Shown here: positions 153 through 45,381 of the stretch, piece by piece
How the letters are laid out: each line of letters opens with the position of its first letter
Numbering within the stretch: position 1 is the first letter of the stretch
Notes under the pieces: model-generated
Seen by the model: only the letters and a program-made list of their open reading frames with translations
Databases searched by the model: none
Told to the model about the DNA's origin: nothing
DNA from: a virus
Reading direction: 5' to 3' (one strand)
Length of the DNA: 45,441 bases
Virus record (IMG/VR): IMGVR_UViG_3300045988_038629
Span: 1-45,441 of that record
Program-made: the position numbers and the translations under genes

Positions 153-1155
153 ACTGTTTCTTAATATATTTTGCAGATACAAAGCCATAATACTTTCCTG
201 CAATACGAATATAATACCATTTGCTGCCGTTTTTATCTTTCTGTGTATAATTCATAACTTCCACTTCATTTCCCTGGTTGAGCTTTGGGTATTTTTTGAT
301 GTTCGGGTACTCAGTTCCAGCCCAAGTACGCACATTAAGCACAGTGGCAGTTACATTTCCATTGAAAAGCACCTGTGTCTTATCCTGTTTTCCTGTAATG
401 GTAGCGGATGCGGGGCCACCCTCCTTTGCTAGATATCCAGTCCAGATCCAGCCAATACCGATACCGGAAACTTTTACATGCGTCCACTTTCCACTTGTTT
501 TTCCATCAATATCAACAACAGTATCTTTATCAATGGAACCCATTACATATCCATTCGGTGTCTCGCGGACGTATAAATCGTTCACAGTCGCTATTCTAAT
601 TCCTGCCTTTTTCCATGTGACAGTATCTTCATAGGATTCCCAATCAATCCAAACATATCCGTCGATTGCTGGATCGTTGATGGAGTAGGATTTATTGCGA
701 ACCGCTCCGCCATTTGCCACCACTCCTGGAGCACTGGAAGTATTTCCCTCATTAGTATAAATTCTAGCTCCATCAAAATTCTGTACATCTCCAATATGGG
801 AGCCATTTCGGAAAATCAGAAGTGCACCAAGTTTCGGAACGGTATGCCATGTGCCCTGTTTTTTCGACCAGTTTTTTACACTCTGACAGTTATAAAAACC
901 ACCACCCATGATTTTGAGGGCATTTGTGATTCCAAGAACTTTTGCCAGCTTCCAGAACTGATACTCTGCACACCACGGCTGCCCCTGGCATCCTGGCTGT
1001 CCCCAGCTATTTACATCTCTTGCGAATTTGGTGTAATTGTTGTATCCTGCATTCTTTTTAAAATCATCCAGATAGGCATTACTTTTCTTTTCAAGGTACC
1101 CGCCGTTGGATGCGTAATAATAACCAAGGCTTAAAAATTCCTGTAATTTGCTCAT
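151..1155 (-). CDS. Endolysin: N-terminal CHAP peptidase/amidase domain plus two SH3b-like wall-binding domains
   Basis: Motifs QPWCAEY (Cys), GSHIGDV (His) and TNEGNTS. Two C-terminal SH3_3-like repeats. Start moved to MSKLQEF (ATG 1153-1155), which has an AAAGGA RBS. Confidence 0.85.
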   Translation of the reverse strand: MSKLQEFLSLGYYYASNGGYLEKKSNAYLDDFKKNAGYNNYTKFARDVNSWGQPGCQGQPWCAEYQFWKLAKVLGITNALKIMGGGFYNCQSVKNWSKKQGTWHTVPKLGALLIFRNGSHIGDVQNFDGARIYTNEGNTSSAPGVVANGGAVRNKSYSINDPAIDGYVWIDWESYEDTVTWKKAGIRIATVNDLYVRETPNGYVMGSIDKDTVVDIDGKTSGKWTHVKVSGIGIGWIWTGYLAKEGGPASATITGKQDKTQVLFNGNVTATVLNVRTWAGTEYPNIKKYPKLNQGNEVEVMNYTQKDKNGSKWYYIRIAGKYYGFVSAKYIKKQ

Positions 1156-2919: not shown

Positions 2920-5900
2920 TCAATCCTTTCGTGAAATATTGTTGATAAGTTCTTTTAACTGCTCTACCTCTGCTGATAAAGCATCAATTTTAGAAAGTAA
3001 TATCTGGTTATCTGACTGCAATGCCAGAACCTTCTCATGGTCGTTTTTCAGCATGGCAAACATGCATGGGATCATAATGCGATAATTCCAGTTTTCAGCT
3101 TTACCTTTTTCATTATGGTCAACAGCTAATGGAAATCTTCGGTCAATGTCCTCGGCTATAAACATCGGCATTTCTTTACCGTATCGTTCATCTTGCTCAG
3201 ATAAATATCCGTCTTTGTATTTCGCCCAGATTACTTTGATTCTGTATAGGTCTTCCAGCTCGTCTTCTTTGATGGATTTCCCAAGCACTTTGTAGTGCAT
3301 GGAGGATGATGAGGAATATCCAACATAAAGATATGTTGGACTAAAAACCATCGGATTTCCAGCAGTAAGTGCTTTCATTCCTTCTATCATTAAATTTTGA
3401 GCTACCTTAAATATCAAATCACCAGTTACAGATTGGAGAACAACATTTCTCTTGTTTTCATATTGCGCTGATAAGTCAAGAAGTCCATCTGTTATGCTGC
3501 CATATCCAGCACTAAATATAGATTCTTTTATTTGCGCCCACTCATTCCCTTTTATATTTTTGAATCCATCTGTATTGTTTATTTTGCAAATAACATTTCC
3601 GCTAGCATCATACACCTCAAAAGTGCCATATCCATTATTTGGACCGCCGAGCTTCAATGTGCCGCCCTTGGCGTAAGTGAACGAAATATATAGCTGATTT
3701 CCCTCTTTATAAATTCCTTTAATTGCGCCATCATTGGTTAAGAGGTTAAATATTTCTTCATGTGTAAGTGCATCTACATCAATTACAACCGCCATACTTT
3801 GGGAATCTAATGGTTGTGAAAATCCACCCGCCGCGTATAAGGTACATTTTATGGCACTTACATCTCTTGGAATTCCAATTGACCTTCCAGAAGCCGTTGT
3901 TATAATTCCTCCCGCTTTAGTTGATAATACCGTATATAAATTATGTGAAACGCTTGTTTCGTCTTTCGCAGAAGAATATACCGTTTTCCAATTTTCCCCA
4001 TCTACGGATTCTTCGATTTTAAAACGACCTTTATATGCTGTTCGTGTTTCCGCGTTTCCATCGCGATACCAAGCACTCAAAGTAATATAGCTCGGGGCTA
4101 CACTGCCATTCGCGCGTTGCTTAATAACATATGATGGGCTTTCAAGAAAATATGTCCTACCAGGTACACCTTGTTCTCCTTTTGGCCCCTGGAGGCCGTC
4201 AACGCCATCTTTGCCAGCGTAAATTTTAGCCAGCGAAAATCTCTTAACTACTGATAGAACACTGATATATGTTGCTTTAATATCTACCCATCCATCGTCA
4301 GCGGATAATGCTGTTACCGTGTATGTCTTGGTTGCATTATTCCAGGATCCTGTTACACTATCTGATTTGATAATTGTAAATTTGCAATCAGATGTAATAT
4401 CCTGTGTTCCGTACATTACGACCGCCTGTGTACTCACGTTACTCGGAAACGTTCCATAATTTCCATCAGAATCAACAGAAACGCCCTGGTATTCGTTACT
4501 CAGCTGCAAGGTCATATTCTTGGCAAGAGCCGCCGCTTCCTGTGCCTGTTTAGCTGCTGCCAATGCGTCTTCAGAGTCTTTCAGTGCCTTTGTAACGTCC
4601 GTATCTTTCAACTGTTTCCAATAATACCCATTGCCCTCATTTACAAATCGGTAAGCATGGCTATTACCATCATAATAAATATCTCCGACATGCTTGCTCA
4701 TTTCGGTATCATCCAGCCACTCATTAGCTGGATAATTACTCAATGTAGGCACTGAGGTTCCTGTCCAGGTGTTTATATTCCCATCAATCTGCCCCTGCAT
4801 GCTGCTTAACAATCCGTCCAAAGGTGATGCGCCGATTCTGACAGAAGCACCATCAATAACGATCTGGTTGTTATCAATATCTGCTGAAAAAATAATCTTC
4901 CCGTTTGCGTCACGCACGATCAGCGCGCCGGCATTGATGTAGCTTGCATTGATTCCCTCGGCGTATAGCAGTCTTGTAATCATTTCTCCTGTAACAGTAA
5001 ATCCATAAGGATAGGTTTTTCCACCATCTGTAGAAATTCCAATGGCTTCCGCCGTGAGTTTCCATACAATATCTGATTCTTCCAGAGTCGGCTTATTGTG
5101 CATATAATAGATTACACTACCGTCGTCCTGTGGATCTTCTGTCATATAAAGCCCGCCAGACTCCTTAAGCGTATTTGCTAGCCTTTCAACGGCTTTTTCG
5201 CGCTCTGTGCGTTCATCCTTAACAAGTTGTCTAGCTTCTACCAGTGCTTTTGTAGCTTCCGACATATATGTGCTGCTATTTCGGATGGGATCATCTGCCT
5301 GCGTTTTTACAGTGGTAATGCCATTTAACGGAGATGATACATCAGTAATCGGTGTAAGATATTTATTTCCGTTCCGATCAAAGCTATATGCCATGTCTCC
5401 AAACTCTAACAGAGGATTATAAATCAGATCTCCTTGCAGATTTCGGAATTTAGCCCCGACCAGATCGCCACCGATCCATGCCGCTACAGTTCCGAGGTCA
5501 CTGTCAGACAGAAGATTATTTTCCAACTCCAGAACATATCCAGCAGTTCCAAACAGGGATTCCGATTCTTTGTTTTTTACTCTGATACCAGTAATTACAA
5601 TATCATCACTGGAAAGTGTAGGACTACTCACGTAATCCTCTAATTTAAACGGAACTAAGGAGCCGTTTTCGACAGCTCCAAAATTCCATTTTATAAACTG
5701 CAAATAACCTCTGTTGTCAATTCTGGCGTTTGCTGTCTCTAGCATTGCCGCCCATCCGATCAATTGACGGAATGTCATATTATCTGGGAGCGCTGTGACA
5801 ATTACATTTCCATGCGCCATAGAGGAAAATCCAATAGGGATATTCAAACTCTCACAAGCGTCTCTTACCAGCGCTATAACTGTCTGTGGAAGTGTCAGAG

Positions 5901-19271: not shown

Positions 19272-19472
19272 TCAGCACACTTTGATTATTTTATTATTTA
19301 CCCTCCGGCTTAACCGCTTTGCTGTAGATATGCTCACGTTCATTTGCTCAGCGCAGTATTCGAGCGTATATTCCTTGCATCTCAACCGGAACAGTCTTTC
19401 TTCGTCCGGTGTAAAATTACACTCTATCAAGAATCTGTCTATATCTTTCTTAGTGAACACATATAATTTCAT
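19272..19472 (-). CDS. Small sigma-70 region-4-like HTH protein (putative transcription regulator)
   Basis: TPDEERLFRLRCKEYTLEYCAEQMNVSISTAKRLSRRVNNKI matches the region-4 HTH pattern. Confidence 0.55.
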   Translation of the reverse strand: MKLYVFTKKDIDRFLIECNFTPDEERLFRLRCKEYTLEYCAEQMNVSISTAKRLSRRVNNKIIKVC

Positions 19473-19495
19473 GAGCATACCCCTTATTAATGCAA

Positions 19496-19801
19496 TTAAC
19501 GCTGATTCTGTGCAAGATAATTTGTAAGCTTCTGTTTTGTTTTTTTTAATTCTTCTACATTATTCCCACTAATCTGGCTGTCCAGCATGGTTGATAACAC
19601 TTCCAGAATTAATGAATCTCGCTCTGCAATCCTCTGAAGACTCTCAAAGTCACGCTTGTCGTGTTCTTCCAGTGTTTCTACTCGCTTATTAAGTCGGAAT
19701 GCCGGGGTAATCCATTTAAAGATTACAGCCGCTGCCCCTCCGACAATAGACACCCCTCCGCAGATAGAAAGGAAAATCTGTACAAATTCTGATATGCTCA
19801 T
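19496..19801 (-). CDS. Hypothetical membrane protein (N-terminal TM + coiled coil)
   Basis: FLSICGGVSIVGGAAAVIFKWI followed by a charged helix. Confidence 0.55.
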   Translation of the reverse strand: MSISEFVQIFLSICGGVSIVGGAAAVIFKWITPAFRLNKRVETLEEHDKRDFESLQRIAERDSLILEVLSTMLDSQISGNNVEELKKTKQKLTNYLAQNQR

Positions 19802-19805
19802 TTAG

Positions 19806-20189
19806 CTACTCCTTTTCCCAGTAATATACCGGGACTTCATTTCCGGAATCCCATGTATCATAATATTTACCATCTTGTACTGTCACCACATGACCATCTA
19901 TACAAAGGATATACGTACCTGTCGGATGGTCTGTACAAAAGTCGTTGACTGTATAGATATATCGCTCTGATTGTTCAATCAGTTTGCGTCTGTACCCGCG
20001 TTTATAGAGGTACGCTCCCCAAACATAATTTGCACTCGGCATATCTGACAGAGTGCACGCCTGTATCATTAATCCGACGAATACCGTTTCCCAGTCGAAG
20101 CCAGTTGCTTTGCATATTGCTCGGACAACGCAATCTCCTGTTCTTTTATCCTTAACAGGATTTGGATTATAATATTCCCATCTGTCCAT
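19806..20189 (-). CDS. Hypothetical papain-fold-like Cys/His protein
   Basis: NPNPVKDKRTGDCVVRAI (Cys) ... IDGHVVTVQDGKYYDTWDSG (His). Confidence 0.5.
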   Translation of the reverse strand: MDRWEYYNPNPVKDKRTGDCVVRAICKATGFDWETVFVGLMIQACTLSDMPSANYVWGAYLYKRGYRRKLIEQSERYIYTVNDFCTDHPTGTYILCIDGHVVTVQDGKYYDTWDSGNEVPVYYWEKE

Positions 20190-20662
20190 CAGTCAATCCC
20201 CTTTGCTGTCTTATATCGTTTTGCCGCTCCTCTGGCTTTTGCGGCGTTCTGGCGGTCCCATTTAGCTATCATAAGTCGGTCTTGCAGTTCTCTCAGGTCA
20301 TTCTGCTTGCAGTAGTCCTTATATGCAGCATTTTGTTTCTGTAAAAGATAAGACTTCCGGTCAAGGTCTTGCTGTAATGCGAATTTCGCCTTTTCGTTCG
20401 GTGCATTGTCGACTCCTGCTTGTAATCCAAGAACCTCTCTCTTTGTTTTGCGGATTCTTCGCTCATAAGTACGTTGCCGCTGTTCTTTTTCGTACTGTTT
20501 GCCTTTGTCGGCTTTGTCCTGTGCTGATAATTCTGTATAAGGGTTCGGCATTCCTTCCGCCCAAACTGAAAAATGATGTCTGCAATTTACTCCGCATATT
20601 CCATCGGCTTCGCCATAATGACAATTTTCAATAAAATCAGGATAAGTATGTTTTTTATTCAT
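20189..20662 (-). CDS. C-terminal fragment of the head-morphogenesis/minor capsid protein 2 (SPP1 gp7/Mu F-like)
   Basis: The GICGVNCRHHF motif is typical of the family's C-terminal part. Has its own GGGGTGA RBS and ATG. Confidence 0.65.
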   Translation of the reverse strand: MNKKHTYPDFIENCHYGEADGICGVNCRHHFSVWAEGMPNPYTELSAQDKADKGKQYEKEQRQRTYERRIRKTKREVLGLQAGVDNAPNEKAKFALQQDLDRKSYLLQKQNAAYKDYCKQNDLRELQDRLMIAKWDRQNAAKARGAAKRYKTAKGID

Positions 20663-20679
20663 AAATAGTCACCCCATAA

Positions 20680-21360
20680 TTACTCAATATTTGTATATCC
20701 CCAATATTTTAATTCCATTTGTTTCCTTGCCATTACTGCTTCTTCTTTGGTTTTAAAAACTCGATCTTCTACGCGTTTTCCGCCTACAGAAATATAAGCT
20801 CTCCATTTTGAATGATTATTGTCAAATAAAACTCCCTTTATACCACTTTTATTGTTCTTGTTTAATGTTGTGGGATTTTTTATGTTTTCTACAATTTCGT
20901 CAAAAGTCCATCCATGATTAAGCCTTTTTCTTATATATTCACGATGAACGCCAAAGAAATGTTCCCATTCACCTACGGTTTTTGTATCTCCTTGGTATTT
21001 AATTTTCCAACTGCTTTGTTTGTTGTTGTTTTGCCATTCTAATGGCACCCACCGACAATTATCAGGAGAATACCCTTTATTAACATCTATCCTGTCTATT
21101 GTAAGTTCTTTTTCGTACCCGCTTGTGTAAGCCCATAATAAAAAAGGTTTGAATTCTTTCCATTCATCACATACTGTTATTCCTCTATCAAAATACGCCA
21201 CTTTGTTATGAGGCTGTGCCTTTTCAGATGTTCTTATTTTCATGCCTGCCCATATTTTGTATAATCGAGTTCCTGCCATTCCGTGAGAATATCTGTAGGA
21301 TTTCCCTGAAAGTGGTTTTTCTTTTTTACCATTTTTAATACAAAATTCTTCAAAAGTCAT
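20680..21360 (-). CDS. HNH homing endonuclease with a C-terminal AP2 DNA-binding domain
   Basis: LTIDRIDVNKGYSPDNCRWVPLEWQNNN (HNH_3) and GIKGVLFDNNHSKWRAYISVGGKRV...EEA (AP2). Start at MTFEEF with an AAAGGAGAA RBS. Confidence 0.8.
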   Translation of the reverse strand: MTFEEFCIKNGKKEKPLSGKSYRYSHGMAGTRLYKIWAGMKIRTSEKAQPHNKVAYFDRGITVCDEWKEFKPFLLWAYTSGYEKELTIDRIDVNKGYSPDNCRWVPLEWQNNNKQSSWKIKYQGDTKTVGEWEHFFGVHREYIRKRLNHGWTFDEIVENIKNPTTLNKNNKSGIKGVLFDNNHSKWRAYISVGGKRVEDRVFKTKEEAVMARKQMELKYWGYTNIE

Positions 21361-21473
21361 TGCGTTTTCTCCTTTCAACTACATTTATCTACATTCAATT
21401 ATATCATTATTTTATTTTAATTGCAAGTAGTTGAAAGTTATGATAAGCTTTAGTATGAAAGGAGTTGAATAAA

Positions 21474-21641
21474 ATGTCAAATAACAGAGGTTTAAAAAAC
21501 CGTGTAGCAATATCAAATGCTATTGATCGTGAAATTTACGAAAAATTAAAATCGTATTCTGATGATACTGGAATACCTATCAGTAAATTGCTCGATAAAG
21601 CAATTTCATTGTATCTCGATTCTATCAAAGATAAGGCTTGA
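21474..21641 (+). CDS. Ribbon-helix-helix (CopG/Arc-like) protein, 55 aa
   Basis: Translation MSNNRGLKNRVAISNAIDREIYEKLKSYSDDTGIPISKLLDKAISLYLDSIKDKA. GAAAGGAG RBS. Below the ORF-track size cutoff. Confidence 0.6.
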   Translation: MSNNRGLKNRVAISNAIDREIYEKLKSYSDDTGIPISKLLDKAISLYLDSIKDKA

Positions 21642-22305
21642 TTTCTTTTAATTTTTCCCAGTCTATAGAGAATACCTGCCCTTGCCACACTTCATGGCTT
21701 GGGCGGCTTCCTATATGTGCCGATGTCAGCACTAAGCCATATCCCATTTCTTTCATTCTTGCTAACTGAATATCAGCACACGCCTGAGCCACACCAGTTC
21801 TGACAGAACGCGCAACTGCGGTTTCAATCGTGTCTTTTCTGCCAGATGGATATGTGACGGTGACACCATCTGATACAACATTATTAACCGCCTCTTTGAC
21901 GGCTTGCGTATATCCAACTGCCCCAGTCATCACATGATTATATGCAAGGTCGCATTGCTCAATATAGAGCCTCTGAGCGGCACTTGCGGTTGTTCGTGTA
22001 AAGTTCTTCCACTCGCCCATGGTTGCAAGCATATTCCGCTCCATGAGTCTTATCATTGTCGGTGACTGTTCGAGCGGTACAGGGCTTAGTCCTGCCGCCT
22101 TATAGACCTTGTCGTCATAGTTCATTGCAGTGATTCCGGCATCCTCAAACGCTTCAAGAAGTTCCTGCTGTTCACGTTTGGTATATTTGGATAATTCCGC
22201 TAGAATGTCCTCTAACAGCTCGCCGGACTCTTGTAGCGTTCTGATTCTCCATGCATCAGCATTGGTCAGAATATAATCTTCACCTCTGCCGATTCTTGCC
22301 ATCAT
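21625..22305 (-). CDS. N-terminal fragment of the head-morphogenesis/minor capsid protein 2
   Basis: SAHIGSRPSHEVWQGQVF motif. The frame stays open upstream to 22407 and encodes family-like sequence (LSPEYLRRITEGSEQIAEELHQYIISEIVSR) with no ATG/GTG/TTG codon. A possible ATT/ATA start lies at 22404/22401 after a GAGGTGA RBS. Confidence 0.65.
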   Translation of the reverse strand: MMARIGRGEDYILTNADAWRIRTLQESGELLEDILAELSKYTKREQQELLEAFEDAGITAMNYDDKVYKAAGLSPVPLEQSPTMIRLMERNMLATMGEWKNFTRTTASAAQRLYIEQCDLAYNHVMTGAVGYTQAVKEAVNNVVSDGVTVTYPSGRKDTIETAVARSVRTGVAQACADIQLARMKEMGYGLVLTSAHIGSRPSHEVWQGQVFSIDWEKLKEIKPYL

Positions 22306-22483
22306 CCTCGATACGATCTCAGAGATGATATACTGGTGCAGTTCTTCTGCAATTTGTTCGCTTCCCTCTGTTATCCGGCGTAAATATTCAGGACTAAGTA
22401 TAATGTATCACCTCTTTCGATAAATGTTGTGGTACATGTTTTAAAAATATGCTACAATCAACCTATTAAGGAGGTGTCGCAAA

Positions 22484-22711
22484 ATGTTTTTAAAACTGAA
22501 AATTTATTGCACTTGTAATTGCAACTATTACGTAAACGAGCAAATTAACACGGAAAAGGTAATTTGCCCAAACTGTGGTAAAGAACATCCGTCTTCATCA
22601 CAAATTATATCTATGCTTCACATGGCTAAGTGCATTGATGATGGCAATGTCCCTGGCGTAAATACAGTAAGGACATTTGCTGTATCCAAGCGAGAAGATT
22701 CTGGCTGTTAA
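22484..22711 (+). CDS. Zinc-ribbon protein (75 aa), antisense-embedded moron
   Basis: CTCNC...CPNCG. AAGGAGGTG RBS, upstream TGCTACAAT extended -10, and a terminator directly downstream. Confidence 0.6.
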   Translation: MFLKLKIYCTCNCNYYVNEQINTEKVICPNCGKEHPSSSQIISMLHMAKCIDDGNVPGVNTVRTFAVSKREDSGC

Positions 22712-22726
22712 TAATGTTATTGCAAA

Positions 22727-22760
22727 GTGGAGAGGAGTTTTAATCCTCCCCACTTTTTTT
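22727..22760 (+). terminator. Intrinsic terminator of the zinc-ribbon gene
   Basis: GTGGAGAGGA-GTTTTAA-TCCTCCCCAC followed by TTTTTTT. Confidence 0.75.
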
Positions 22761-22861
22761 ACTTAATTCACTAAAACTCTCTTGTAATTGGCTTTGGAAT
22801 TTCACCTGTCAAATATGCGAGGTATTTTTCTTCCCTTGTTACCGGCTTATCTGCCATCTTT

Positions 22862-43806: not shown

Positions 43807-45381
43807 ATGAATGAATCAGTATGCATCTATCTAAGGAAATCCAGAGCTGATCGGGAAGCTGAAGCGCATGGAGAGGGTGAAACCCTCGCCAGACATGAAC
43901 GGATCCTGTTAGATCTCGCAAAGAAAAAAGAGTACATCGTGGGCGCTATTTACCGCGAAGTGGTATCGGGAGAAACTATCGCCGACCGTCCTGTTATGCA
44001 GCAGCTTCTCCACGAAGTAGAATCCGGTATGTGGGATGGAGTTCTGGTTGTGGAAGTAGAACGTCTCGCCAGAGGTGATACTATAGACCAAGGCGTTGTG
44101 TCCAGGGCTTTCCAATATTCCGATACGAAGATTATTACCCCAACAAAAATATATGACCCAAACAACGAATTTGATGAAGAGTATTTTGAGTTTGGGCTAT
44201 TCATGAGCCGCCGAGAATACAAAACCGTCAAGCGCCGTCTGAATGCCGGAAGGATCTCATCAATAAAAGAAGGGAAATACTGTGGTAACAAACCACCTTA
44301 CGGATACGAAAGAGTTAAGCTCGAAAAAGAAAAAGGCTATACTCTCCGACCTGTTCCGGCTCAGGCTGAGATTGTAAAAATGATCTACACCTGGTATGCC
44401 GGTGATGGCTGCGAACAAATTGGAGTCGCGAAGATTGCACGGAAATTAAATGAAATGGGAATAGAATCTGCACTGGGCGGCGACTGGACTCCTGCCAGTA
44501 TACAGGGAATTCTGACAAATCCGGTATACATCGGGAAAATCCGATGGAATGGGAGAAAAACAGTGAAGACTATACAGAATGGTCAAGTAATTAAGACACG
44601 CCCACGATCAAAAGATACTCTTATTTGTGATGGATTGCATCCGGCTATTATATCGGAGGACCTGTTTAACTCCGTACAGGAAATACGAAAAAAGAACCCA
44701 CCTCGACCAGTTAGTATAGCAAACTCGATTCGTAATCCACTTGCCGGAATTGTCTATTGCAGCAAATGCGGTCGCGCCATGGTTCGCCGTCCTTATCAAA
44801 AGCGCGGACAGGAAGATACCCTCATGTGTCCATATACGTCTTGCCCCACAGTAAGTAGCAAGTTGCCTCTGGTTGAAAAAGCTGTGATTGATGGAATTAG
44901 GGAGATTGTGGAGGAATATAAGTTAAACAATGATATTAATATATCTTCAAAGGATATTGATTGCGGAATAACTTCTAAGCAGAATCTCATACACGAAAAA
45001 GAAAACGAGCTGAAAAACTTAAACTCTCAGAAGGCGAAACAATATGATCTGCTTGAACAGGGTATCTACACCACAGAGGTTTTTCTTGAACGTGCTAAAA
45101 CAATATCCGCATCTATCCAGTCATGCTCCGATACTATAGAAAAATTAAAAGAAGAAATCAAACATGGCGAGAACATTATAAAACAACGGTCGGATTTTAT
45201 CCCGCGTTGCGAAGAGTTGCTTGATAATTATTGGAGCCTTGACACGGAATCGAAGAATAAAATGCTTAAGAGTTTGATTGAAAAGGTTGTCTACTCAAAA
45301 GATACAAAAAACGCTTATGGGAAAGGCAACGAGATTGGTTTTCAGCTAGACATTTTCCCAAAAATTCAAAAGAATAATTAA
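43807..45381 (+). CDS. int: Large serine recombinase (integrase)
   Basis: N-terminal resolvase domain with YLRKSRAD (catalytic Ser), a recombinase domain, the zinc ribbon CSKCG...CPYTSC, and a C-terminal coiled coil. Confidence 0.9.
   Translation: MNESVCIYLRKSRADREAEAHGEGETLARHERILLDLAKKKEYIVGAIYREVVSGETIADRPVMQQLLHEVESGMWDGVLVVEVERLARGDTIDQGVVSRAFQYSDTKIITPTKIYDPNNEFDEEYFEFGLFMSRREYKTVKRRLNAGRISSIKEGKYCGNKPPYGYERVKLEKEKGYTLRPVPAQAEIVKMIYTWYAGDGCEQIGVAKIARKLNEMGIESALGGDWTPASIQGILTNPVYIGKIRWNGRKTVKTIQNGQVIKTRPRSKDTLICDGLHPAIISEDLFNSVQEIRKKNPPRPVSIANSIRNPLAGIVYCSKCGRAMVRRPYQKRGQEDTLMCPYTSCPTVSSKLPLVEKAVIDGIREIVEEYKLNNDINISSKDIDCGITSKQNLIHEKENELKNLNSQKAKQYDLLEQGIYTTEVFLERAKTISASIQSCSDTIEKLKEEIKHGENIIKQRSDFIPRCEELLDNYWSLDTESKNKMLKSLIEKVVYSKDTKNAYGKGNEIGFQLDIFPKIQKNN

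Follow-up and report, generated by a model that had tools for sequence, protein, structure and literature searches.

A probable repressor-controlled homing-endonuclease cassette within a split phage minor capsid gene

Free-standing homing endonuclease genes that divide a host gene have been described in T4-type phages, with mobE in nrdA of phage Aeh1, mobA in the topoisomerase gene of T4 and a seg-like gene in gene 43 of phage 25 as examples, and it is established for these phages that genes split in this way can give two working polypeptides (PMC2988022). Here, a comparable arrangement is described in a viral DNA of 45,441 nucleotides (IMG/VR record IMGVR_UViG_3300045988_038629, positions 1–45,441; this whole stretch is called the window), in which a minor capsid protein 2 gene is interrupted by a 990-bp insert that carries a predicted endonuclease gene and, divergent from it, a small ribbon–helix–helix (RHH) gene of the Arc type. 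The locus is explained with good probability as a free-standing homing-endonuclease cassette that splits the capsid gene under the control of its own repressor. As in the Aeh1, T4 and phage 25 cases, the HNH-type gene lies outside any intron or intein, within a conserved coding region, and leaves two halves that would be translated separately; the apparently co-converted flanks and the presence or absence of the element among related phages are also common to both. The differences are that the host gene encodes a virion minor capsid protein instead of an enzyme, and that the cassette adds a divergent predicted RHH repressor gene and a strong pair of sigma-70-type promoters, whereas the T4 examples depend on phage promoters, RNA structure, RNA processing or autorepression by the endonuclease.

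Two further systems are relevant for the control of the cassette. I-TevI represses its own expression through an operator that overlaps its promoter and mimics the homing site (PMC2988022). The predicted situation in the window is similar in that the expression of a homing endonuclease would be held down through a promoter-overlapping operator; it differs in that a separate RHH protein is the predicted repressor, whereas the T4 endonuclease represses itself, and in that the empty homing site shows no operator-like motif. The RHH protein is homologous to the Arc proteins of IS605-family transposons, which bind a bidirectional promoter and repress tnpB, as shown by ChIP-seq, reporters and mutagenesis in a recent preprint (bioRxiv 10.64898/2026.09.24.754181; Moon, Zedaveinyte, Wiegand and Sternberg, September 2026). 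In both cases, a homologous small RHH gene diverges from a selfish nuclease gene and the binding sites, which are candidates in the window, overlap a bidirectional promoter. The window, however, lacks TnpA, TnpB, transposon ends and a guide RNA, and the partner of its RHH gene is a predicted protein-only homing endonuclease that would move by gene conversion within a phage structural gene. The palindromic -35 element with two -10 elements at 17-nt spacing, the covariation of the RHH arm with the DNA repeats and the swapping of nucleases described below are, by comparison with the preprint, features of the present loci. The preprint mentions arc genes near homing endonuclease genes only in passing, and a literature search returned no dedicated study of phage homing endonucleases with an RHH or Arc partner, nor of a split minor capsid protein 2 gene. 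The free-standing homing cassette is thus a known kind of element, whereas the combination of an Arc repressor with a promoter pair built on a common -35 is so far characterised only for IS605 TnpB.

The split minor capsid gene and its insert

The gene order around the split gene is terminase large subunit, portal, split capsid gene and further head genes, and all the genes of the region lie on the minus strand except for one small plus-strand open reading frame (ORF), the RHH gene. The four ORFs listed in the original prediction, which had been made from the letters of the DNA, are all present. The main features of the locus are as follows:

21625–22407, minus strand: N-fragment of the minor capsid protein 2 gene, with homology from 22401 (PF06152 and PHROG 581)
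21635–21775, minus strand: 5´ flanking (putative co-conversion) tract, encoding CADIQLARMKEMGYGLVLTSAHIGSRPSHEVWQGQVFSIDWEKLKEIKP (mosaic identity and diversity valley)
20645–21634, no strand assigned: inserted cassette of 990 bp (from comparison with uninterrupted and sister alleles)
21474–21641, plus strand: Arc-type RHH gene of 55 amino acids, in an ORF open from 21465 (PF12651 and PHROG 3180)
21361–21473, no strand assigned: divergent control region (promoter scan and conserved architecture)
20680–21360, minus strand: predicted homing endonuclease gene of 226 amino acids, with an HNH-like core (IDRID) and an AP2-like C-terminal domain (PHROG 374 and 3377)
20546–20644, minus strand: 3´ flanking tract travelling with the cassette, encoding YPDFIENCHYGEADGICGVNCRHHFSVWAEGMP (mosaic identity and diversity valley)
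20189–20662, minus strand: C-fragment of the minor capsid protein 2 gene, 157 amino acids (PF06152)

Both capsid fragments belong to PF06152 (Phage_min_cap2). The N-fragment matches profile positions 1–245 of 366 (E = 4.5e-53, 180.9 bits) and the C-fragment positions 251–365 (E = 1.6e-23, 83.7 bits), each above the curated cut-off of 26.3 bits, with about five profile positions absent between the two matches. Since the ORFs tile the profile in succession, they are consecutive parts of one family, and the alternative that the flanking ORFs are unrelated does not hold. A search with PHROG 581 ('minor head protein') agrees with this tiling, and the N-fragment is collinear with residues 1 to about 250 of the uninterrupted 409-amino-acid genes in loci L002 and L003. 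The idea of one head-protein gene split by an inserted endonuclease cassette is therefore borne out by the tiling and by the 409-amino-acid uninterrupted homologues of close relatives. The original prediction had named the minor capsid protein 2/SPP1 gp7 family, and the SPP1 gp7 part of this label was not recovered: both of the quoted motifs, SAHIGSRPSHEVWQGQVF and GICGVNCRHHF, are found in the sequence, but neither fragment matches PF04233 (Mu F/SPP1 gp7) at E < 0.1, and a weak match of the C-fragment to PHROG 12049 'head morphogenesis' (E = 1e-4) is the sole signal related to it. Any relationship to the SPP1 gp7/Mu F family is remote and goes back to motif similarity.

The C-fragment has its own Shine–Dalgarno (SD) sequence, GGGGTGA (20675–20669), followed after six nucleotides by an ATG (20662–20660), as had been predicted. 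Both are supplied by the cassette, which also encodes the leader MNKKHT, and it follows that the capsid protein would be made as two polypeptides. The N-fragment had been delimited as 21625–22305, but its homology begins at 22401, upstream of the first ATG at 22305. An ATA codon stands at the start position (22399–22401, minus strand), 6 nt past a GAGGTGA sequence; the same ATA is found in seven relatives (L001, L013–L016, L029 and L031), in split and uninterrupted alleles alike, while ATG occupies this position in L010, L011, L018, L019, L023 and L030. The ATA may be a non-canonical start that holds the minor capsid protein at a low level. At the other end, the possibility that the tail of the N-fragment (IDWEKLKEIKPYL) comes from reading on into the antisense RHH gene was ruled out: the tail IDWEKLKEIKP is native gene sequence, present up to IKP in the uninterrupted allele L067 as well, and only the final YL-stop derives from the insert.

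The cassette stands where the closest uninterrupted allele, L067, has 66 bp, and its GC content is 25–36% compared with about 45% in the flanks. Three human-gut phage records (MT835739, MT839401 and MT840013) have flanks with about 90% DNA identity, are about 1 kb shorter and carry one 409-amino-acid gene; the window diverges from them over about 115 bp on either side of the insert, and so they cannot fix the junctions. These were defined by protein P0100 on contig L067, an uninterrupted allele with window-type flanks found by a search with a chimeric junction peptide. This search returned only seven proteins, so that empty donor-type alleles are sparsely sampled. The match of L067 to the window runs as far as GAAATCAAGCC (21635) and restarts from TATCC.GATTTT (20644), with 66 nt (22 codons) between, which places the junctions at 21635/21634 and 20645/20644. 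In L074–L079 and L087, which carry a sister cassette, homology to the window restarts exactly at 20644, confirming the 3´ junction. The alignment with intact homologues that the original prediction had called for, with the 409-amino-acid relatives and L067, thereby defines the insertion point. The 22 additional codons of L067 (3095–3160 of that contig, EFFRERDTSEYRRMLEQKASQ) could be an ancestral loop or the scar of an earlier cassette deletion; the similarity of these 66 nt to the RHH gene is too weak to support a scar of that gene.

At this single site the gene is uninterrupted in L001–L003 and L067, occupied in L008–L031, and occupied by another nuclease in L074–L079 and L087. The linker at the insertion position is 5, 7 or 32 residues long in intact alleles, and this variation suggests that the insertion point is a loop tolerant of added residues, with the conserved motifs H..WQG and YPDF...NCRH on either side.

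Phage homing endonucleases are commonly encoded within introns (PMC2988022), and a group I or II self-splicing intron carrying the endonuclease ORF would restore one capsid mRNA and one polypeptide. Cores interrupted by an ORF can escape covariance models. The covariance-model search proposed with the original prediction was run with cmscan, using all 4227 Rfam families and permissive filters, and found nothing at E ≤ 10 in 19800–22800; in three sister cassettes (L035, L048 and L041, E ≤ 1) it found only an unrelated tRNA. The anatomy also leaves little room for an intron. The non-coding part of the 990-bp insert amounts to only 113 nt, the divergent promoter region, plus 17 nt; the 5´ part of the insert is an opposite-strand RHH gene under purifying selection; and every cassette type gives the C-fragment its own SD and ATG. 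Moreover, the 3´ end of the insert is itself coding sequence in sister cassettes, where it belongs to three unrelated endonuclease genes (two of them overlap the start of the C-fragment), and a conserved 3´ intron core is therefore impossible. An intron is accordingly regarded as extremely unlikely. The preference expressed earlier for two polypeptides over an intron thus stands as far as the intron is concerned, while expression as two polypeptides is still a prediction.

Two other readings were rejected. The endonuclease ORF comes with a start, a stop, an SD and a promoter of its own and is not joined in frame to the host gene; an intein or split intein does not apply, as capsid homology fully explains both fragments and the endonuclease is a separate ORF. 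Translational bypass fails on anatomy alone, since a gap of 990 nt with two expressed genes exceeds any known hop.

Mobility of the cassette

A scan of IMG/VR recovered 24 loci with the same endonuclease (99–100% protein identity), all of them in the same split gene. Compared with the window, these loci are 98.6–99.1% identical over the insert segment (998 bp, 20663–21660) and 96–100% over short flanks, while the remainder of the split gene is only 83–92% identical and the portal gene 78–98%. Among carriers, the 5´ flanking tract is 97–100% and the 3´ tract 95–100% identical. Synonymous divergence (pS) between carriers is 0.008–0.016 in the endonuclease gene versus 0.27–0.52 in the fragments of the host gene. 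Across 20 distinct genomes, nucleotide diversity (pi) falls to 0–0.013 from about 21755 to 20596 (about 1.16 kb) and is 0.07–0.22 outside, with sharp edges, the 3´ edge lying at about 20556–20596. The near-invariant block among these 20 related phage genomes therefore consists of the cassette and roughly 50–120 bp of flank per side.

The flanks are mosaic. In the 5´ tract, the window is 40–62% identical to its backbone relative L003, compared with 82–100% outside the tract, and 62–86% identical to the distant split lineage L035. In the 3´ tract, the corresponding values are 52–57% with L003 and 64–73% with L035, and L003 returns to 89–93% just downstream. Thus, outside the tracts the window is nearer to its own backbone relatives than to L035, and inside them the reverse is found. 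Two other cassette types show a similar discordance: the RHH genes of L034 and L035, and those of L048 and L050, are identical, whereas the pS of the corresponding N- and C-fragments is 0.27–0.45. As a pattern read from sequence, the diversity valley with its mosaic flanks is the signature of homing with co-conversion, and double-strand-break repair with co-conversion gives such a pattern in the homing endonucleases of T4 (PMC2988022).

Within the invariant cassette there is a small bump in pi (0.038) at 21356–21395 of the window, over the left operator copy described below and the 5´ untranslated region of the endonuclease gene, where the window has CAACTAC and its relatives have CAACTGC.

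The Arc-type RHH gene and its control region

The 55-amino-acid RHH gene that had been recognised in the window matches PF12651 (RHH_3) with an E-value of 5e-15 and 55.6 bits, above the cut-off of 21.6, and PHROG 3180 'Arc-like repressor' with an E-value of 3e-19. It is antisense to the capsid gene, has an SD sequence (AAAGGAG) 9 nt 5´ of its ATG, and its last 7 nt (G GCT TGA) lie within the host-gene flank. The ratio of non-synonymous to synonymous change (dN/dS) between cassette types is 0.13–0.14, which points to purifying selection. In total, 97 RHH homologues were found, and the protein is 61% identical to the RHH protein beside TnpB in Bacillus phage IEBH.

The pairing of an RHH gene with a homing endonuclease had been considered unusual, which does not apply to this RHH clade. 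In annotated phages (tblastn), RHH homologues diverge from a TnpB-type transposase in Bacillus phages IEBH and LY4, and from a homing endonuclease of the NUMOD3/GIY-YIG type in Clostridium phage BG3P. Among assembled contigs, look-ups of RHH or endonuclease homologues gave the same divergent adjacency to a nuclease or recombinase in eight of nine cases, the neighbours of P0076 being unclear. The same capsid gene is split at the same site by an RHH gene and a 267-amino-acid HNH endonuclease gene in P0009; it is also split by an RHH gene with a GIY-YIG/NUMOD endonuclease gene in P0069 and by an RHH gene with an HNH-AP2 endonuclease gene (79% identical product) in P0111. Elsewhere, RHH and HNH genes lie between terminase and portal (P0062 and P0055), RHH and GIY-YIG genes lie 5´ of a portal-like gene (P0087), and a DNA invertase and an HNH endonuclease stand on either side of the RHH gene (P0025). 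In L069 and L071 (positions 1–1082 of each), a second cassette of RHH and HNH endonuclease (281 amino acids) is found upstream of the split gene, which makes two cassettes within 3 kb.

A survey of 80 IMG/VR viral loci, collected with the RHH alignment, gave a nuclease or recombinase as the divergent neighbour in every one of them: an IDRID-type HNH protein in 46, TnpB in 17, GIY-YIG in 3, a serine invertase in 4 and other proteins (HNH, EndoVII-like or unclassified endonucleases) in 10. The first typing, by a small reference set of our own, had given three invertases and left 11 of the 80 neighbours unassigned; ten of these 11 were searched against PHROG, which identified nine endonucleases (canonical HNH, EndoVII-like HNH or PHROG 4645 'endonuclease') and one serine recombinase, while L118, whose layout is that of L116, was left out of this separate search. 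The exchange of partners can be seen within the phage group of the window itself. In L074–L079 and L087, the N-fragment, the RHH gene and the intergenic region are 94–99% identical to the window, and homology ends at 21365, just before the start codon of the endonuclease gene, where a different endonuclease gene (220 amino acids, zinc-ribbon/HNH/AP2) is located. The nuclease has thus been exchanged behind a constant unit of RHH gene and promoters. TnpB adjoins the RHH gene in L004 and L007, as it does in the 17 surveyed loci, whereas its neighbour in the window is a homing endonuclease gene; TnpB or TnpA beside arc within transposon ends, the mark of an IS605 transposon, is not found in the window.

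The intergenic region between the two genes has a compact architecture, with the following predicted elements:

21426–21421 (-35, TTGCAA) and 21403–21398 (-10, TATAAT), minus strand: predicted endonuclease promoter, with 17-nt spacer and TGn extension (promoter scan, near-consensus)
21421–21426 (-35, TTGCAA) and 21444–21449 (-10, TAAGCT), plus strand: predicted RHH promoter, with 17-nt spacer and TGn extension (two-sided architecture)
21372–21382, minus strand: candidate operator copy GTAGTTGAAAG, between the -10 and the ribosome-binding site of the endonuclease gene
21427–21437, plus strand: candidate operator copy GTAGTTGAAAG, abutting the common -35 within the spacer of the RHH promoter

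TTGCAA reads the same on both strands, so that one -35 hexamer is common to both promoters, and the RHH promoter precedes the SD and ATG of the RHH gene on the plus strand. The hexamer occurs 5´ of the RHH ATG in 42 of 50 distinct RHH upstream regions, usually about 46–60 nt away, and in 37 of the 50 there are -10-like hexamers on both strands 16–18 nt from TTGCAA (17 in nearly all), compared with 0.05% of shuffled sequences; these hexamers are often TATAAT on either side. The -10 of the RHH promoter is TAAGCT in the window and TAAACT in relatives.

The exact 11-mer GTAGTTGAAAG has only two copies in the 45-kb window, inverted with respect to each other and both in the control region; a further ATGTAG lies 10 bp upstream of the copy at 21372–21382, and the motif is conserved in sister cassettes. 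The GTAG repeats of this region stand at 21379–21382, 21389–21392 and 21427–21430. Furthermore, the tetranucleotides that bracket TTGCAA show a 10-bp phasing and covary with the N-terminal arm of the RHH protein across cassettes: RGLKNR..AIS is found with GTAG, KDLK.RTPIS with GGAC and K(D/Q)LKNRI.IG with TGAC. Repeats that overlap the promoter to be regulated, as expected of an operator, are therefore present at the computational level. No operator motif of the kind expected from I-TevI-style mimicry was found at empty homing sites.

Of the two roles proposed for the RHH protein in the original prediction, regulation of the endonuclease gene is the best-supported one, given the promoter and operator architecture, the RHH–repeat covariation and the work on homologous Arc proteins. 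Repression has been demonstrated for IS605 Arc (bioRxiv 10.64898/2026.09.24.754181), and the 61% identity to the IEBH protein extends this backing to the predicted repressor by homology; the experiments concern Arc proteins and not the element of the window. The other role, an antitoxin-like partner, is a poor fit, as the two genes are divergent, not in an operon as in a type II toxin–antitoxin system, and the 55-amino-acid protein is a bare RHH core. In a wider form of this second idea, the RHH protein would act on the endonuclease protein, as an inhibitor of the antitoxin type or as a DNA-targeting subunit, and not on its promoter. Antitoxins are common among RHH proteins and nucleases are potentially toxic, and an interaction of Arc with the TnpB–RNA complex is a proposal cited by Moon et al. 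However, the protein has no C-terminal partner-binding extension, the divergent arrangement without an operon holds in 80 of 80 loci, and empty homing sites carry no operator-like motif. The clade is also paired with unrelated HNH, GIY-YIG, TnpB and serine invertase proteins, for which recognition of one common protein surface is implausible, while a common promoter and operator layout is seen. Action on the protein is therefore considered very unlikely, and repression of the endonuclease promoter remains the preferred role.

Nuclease, divided capsid protein and biological meaning

The predicted endonuclease matches PHROG 374 and 3377 'HNH endonuclease' with E-values of 1e-49 and 8e-44, and its residues 158–223 match the PHROG HNH families 99 and 4578. 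There are more than 3000 homologues, and the majority lack a Pfam domain. Residues D89, R90, N101 and N113 do not vary across the 52 homologues that were aligned, and they are invariant or nearly so among the more than 3000. A PDB search with the single sequence gave no matches; with the family profile, only I-HmuI (1U3E) was found, weakly (E = 0.037), with TIDRID...N...N placed on VVDHKD...N...N. The AlphaFold2 (AF2) model (pLDDT 84) has a strand at 86–90, a strand at 102–106 and a helix at 107–112, a beta-beta-alpha arrangement. The predicted layout resembles that of I-HmuI and the HNH-AP2 enzymes, in that a beta-beta-alpha core, with Asp, Asn and Asn positions conserved, would precede an AP2-like DNA-binding domain at the C-terminus. 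Unlike them, the family of the protein has an invariant Arg in place of the general-base His; HNH_3 gives no match and AP2 lies below threshold. The earlier AP2 label is partly retained: PF00847 is matched weakly (E = 0.0018, 19 bits) and the predicted C-terminal domain, a three-stranded sheet with a helix, resembles the AP2 structures 3igm and 7et4 in Foldseek (probability 0.8–0.95, weak E-values of 0.1–0.5), but the Pfam score is below the cut-off of 33.3 bits. The HNH_3 label has to be dropped, and on sequence criteria the protein is HNH-like and not a member of HNH_3.

Several points weigh against the explanation of the locus as a repressor-controlled homing cassette. The Pfam HNH_3 model gives no match to the endonuclease at E < 0.1, Foldseek finds no significant HNH match for the complete model of both domains (the best is PacI, E = 1.2), and the general-base His75 of I-HmuI aligns with the invariant R90 of the IDRID motif; for these reasons, the chemistry of the nuclease is unverified. 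The -10 of the RHH promoter in the window (TAAGCT) is poor, with three of six consensus positions, even though it is TGn-extended. The junctions depend on one uninterrupted donor-type allele, L067, on an error-prone contig, which contains compensating frameshifts of the type seen in long-read assembly errors. Ordinary recombination with hitch-hiking could in principle be the source of the diversity valley. Finally, the low dN/dS of the N- and C-fragments (0.02–0.14) largely reflects divergence before the arrival of the cassette and is no proof of function after the split.

The Arg at the position of His75, invariant in 52 aligned homologues, could mean that the endonuclease is catalytically inactive and that the cassette has spread by ordinary homologous recombination or through a nuclease acting in trans. 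Additional endonuclease genes are close by in some relatives, and in T4 a defunct endonuclease is reportedly mobilised in trans by MobE. Nevertheless, D89, R90, N101 and N113 are kept across more than 3000 homologues, which argues for a conserved active site over decay, and the gene is nearly free of non-synonymous change among carriers. The low-diversity tract, sharp, symmetric and centred on the cassette, is also the product expected of nuclease-driven conversion. An inactive endonuclease is consequently judged quite unlikely.

A related question is whether the two-piece capsid gene is functional or a dead or dispensable pseudogene, with ORFs that are recent remnants in a phage that copes without the minor capsid protein. 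SPP1 gp7, a related protein, is reportedly not strictly essential. The spread of the cassette is recent (pS of 0.008–0.016 in the endonuclease gene), so that decay would perhaps not yet be visible, dN/dS is blind to whether selection acted before or after the split, and the N-fragment has ATA at its start position. This ATA is shared by the uninterrupted allele L001, however, and is thus unrelated to the split. In none of the complete carrier loci is any of the four ORFs (N, C, RHH and endonuclease) interrupted, so that both capsid ORFs are open in all of them. Four cassette types occupy the one site in two deeply diverged minor capsid protein 2 lineages, and each equips the C half with a start codon just 5´ of YPDF. 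The flanking tracts that travel with the cassette are kept at the protein level, with 33 of 38 and about 26 of 36 residues conserved between the window and L035 types. In locus L034, enough time has passed for the endonuclease gene to be lost, and yet N and C are intact. The database clusters of the 157-amino-acid C product contain 124 and 562 member sequences. A pseudogene is accordingly held to be unlikely, and a capsid protein made of two associating polypeptides is, as judged from sequence, on balance likely, though unproven.

In L034 (2389–2892), the HNH endonuclease gene is cut to 167 amino acids by a stop codon, while the RHH, N and C ORFs are intact, which fits decay of the nuclease after fixation with the repressor kept.

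The mechanism proposed for the cassette combines these elements. The 990-bp cassette would occupy a length-variable, presumably loop-coding position between the H..WQG and YPDF...NCRH motifs, with two divergent genes, the endonuclease gene co-oriented with the host gene and the RHH gene antisense to it, expressed from back-to-back promoters on one -35. The RHH protein would bind the GTAG-containing repeats around the -35 and over the start of the endonuclease transcript, shutting the strong endonuclease promoter and probably its own promoter as well. Production of the nuclease would then be confined to a brief period before the repressor builds up, for example on entering a naive cell, and the gene would be silent in a lysogen. 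The latter possibility arises from a large serine integrase encoded in the window at 43807–45381 (plus strand), a 524-amino-acid recombinase with Resolvase, Recombinase and zinc-ribbon domains, whose presence indicates that the window comes from a temperate phage or prophage. When present, the nuclease would cut cassette-free alleles in co-resident phage genomes, and repair from the carrier allele would copy the cassette together with roughly 100 bp of flank per side. The two capsid polypeptides would have to associate non-covalently.

Other features of the region were observed near the split gene. A 454-bp segment of low GC content (33–39%) at 22408–22861, between the portal and capsid genes, carries an opposite-strand ORF of 75 amino acids with a CxxC...CxxC pattern (22484–22711), for which a PHROG search gave no match. 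It is present in only three of about 27 relatives (L001, L013 and L014) with 98.7% identity, while the portal genes there are 88.7–98.1% identical, and it looks like another mobile insert. In L084, L086, L088 and L096, all carriers of the window-type cassette, a GIY-YIG-like ORF (184 amino acids; 265–819, plus strand) lies a few hundred bp downstream of the C-fragment, and L096 also has an HNH-like ORF (232 amino acids; 3432–4130, minus strand) just 5´ of the N-fragment; the head-gene region is densely populated by endonuclease genes. Downstream of the head genes, a 68-amino-acid ORF (19272–19478, minus strand) resembles sigma-factor region 4 (PHROG 1190, E = 2e-6) and, from this resemblance, may be a small late-gene regulator.

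A broader reading, offered tentatively, treats the Arc-type RHH gene, together with its bidirectional promoter built on a single hexamer, as a portable control platform. It would be the conserved core of many cassettes with selfish nucleases, a large family spread over Firmicutes phages and insertion sequences, in which unrelated nuclease folds (IDRID-HNH, canonical HNH, EndoVII-like, GIY-YIG, TnpB and serine invertase) are swapped. One palindromic -35 serving two promoters implies, in such a platform, that the polymerase engages one direction at a time. If this is true, a repressor that blocks both promoters would allow the nuclease to appear as a zygotic burst in a naive cell and then to fall silent, and homing endonucleases could live in temperate phages and in structural genes at little cost. 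The data suggest that the regulator, and not the nuclease, is the stable unit.

The restraint of free-standing homing endonucleases is known mainly from T4, where it is based on autorepression, RNA structure and RNA processing. The cassette of the window would represent a different and apparently widespread solution, a dedicated Arc-type repressor and a compact promoter pair that travel with the nuclease gene, and it would tie phage homing cassettes to the Arc–TnpB regulation of IS605 elements. The GTAG, GGAC and TGAC types would also provide a natural set of orthogonal repressor/operator pairs. Furthermore, few genes are known that seem to tolerate a division into two polypeptides within a region of conserved motifs, and a virion structural protein now joins them.

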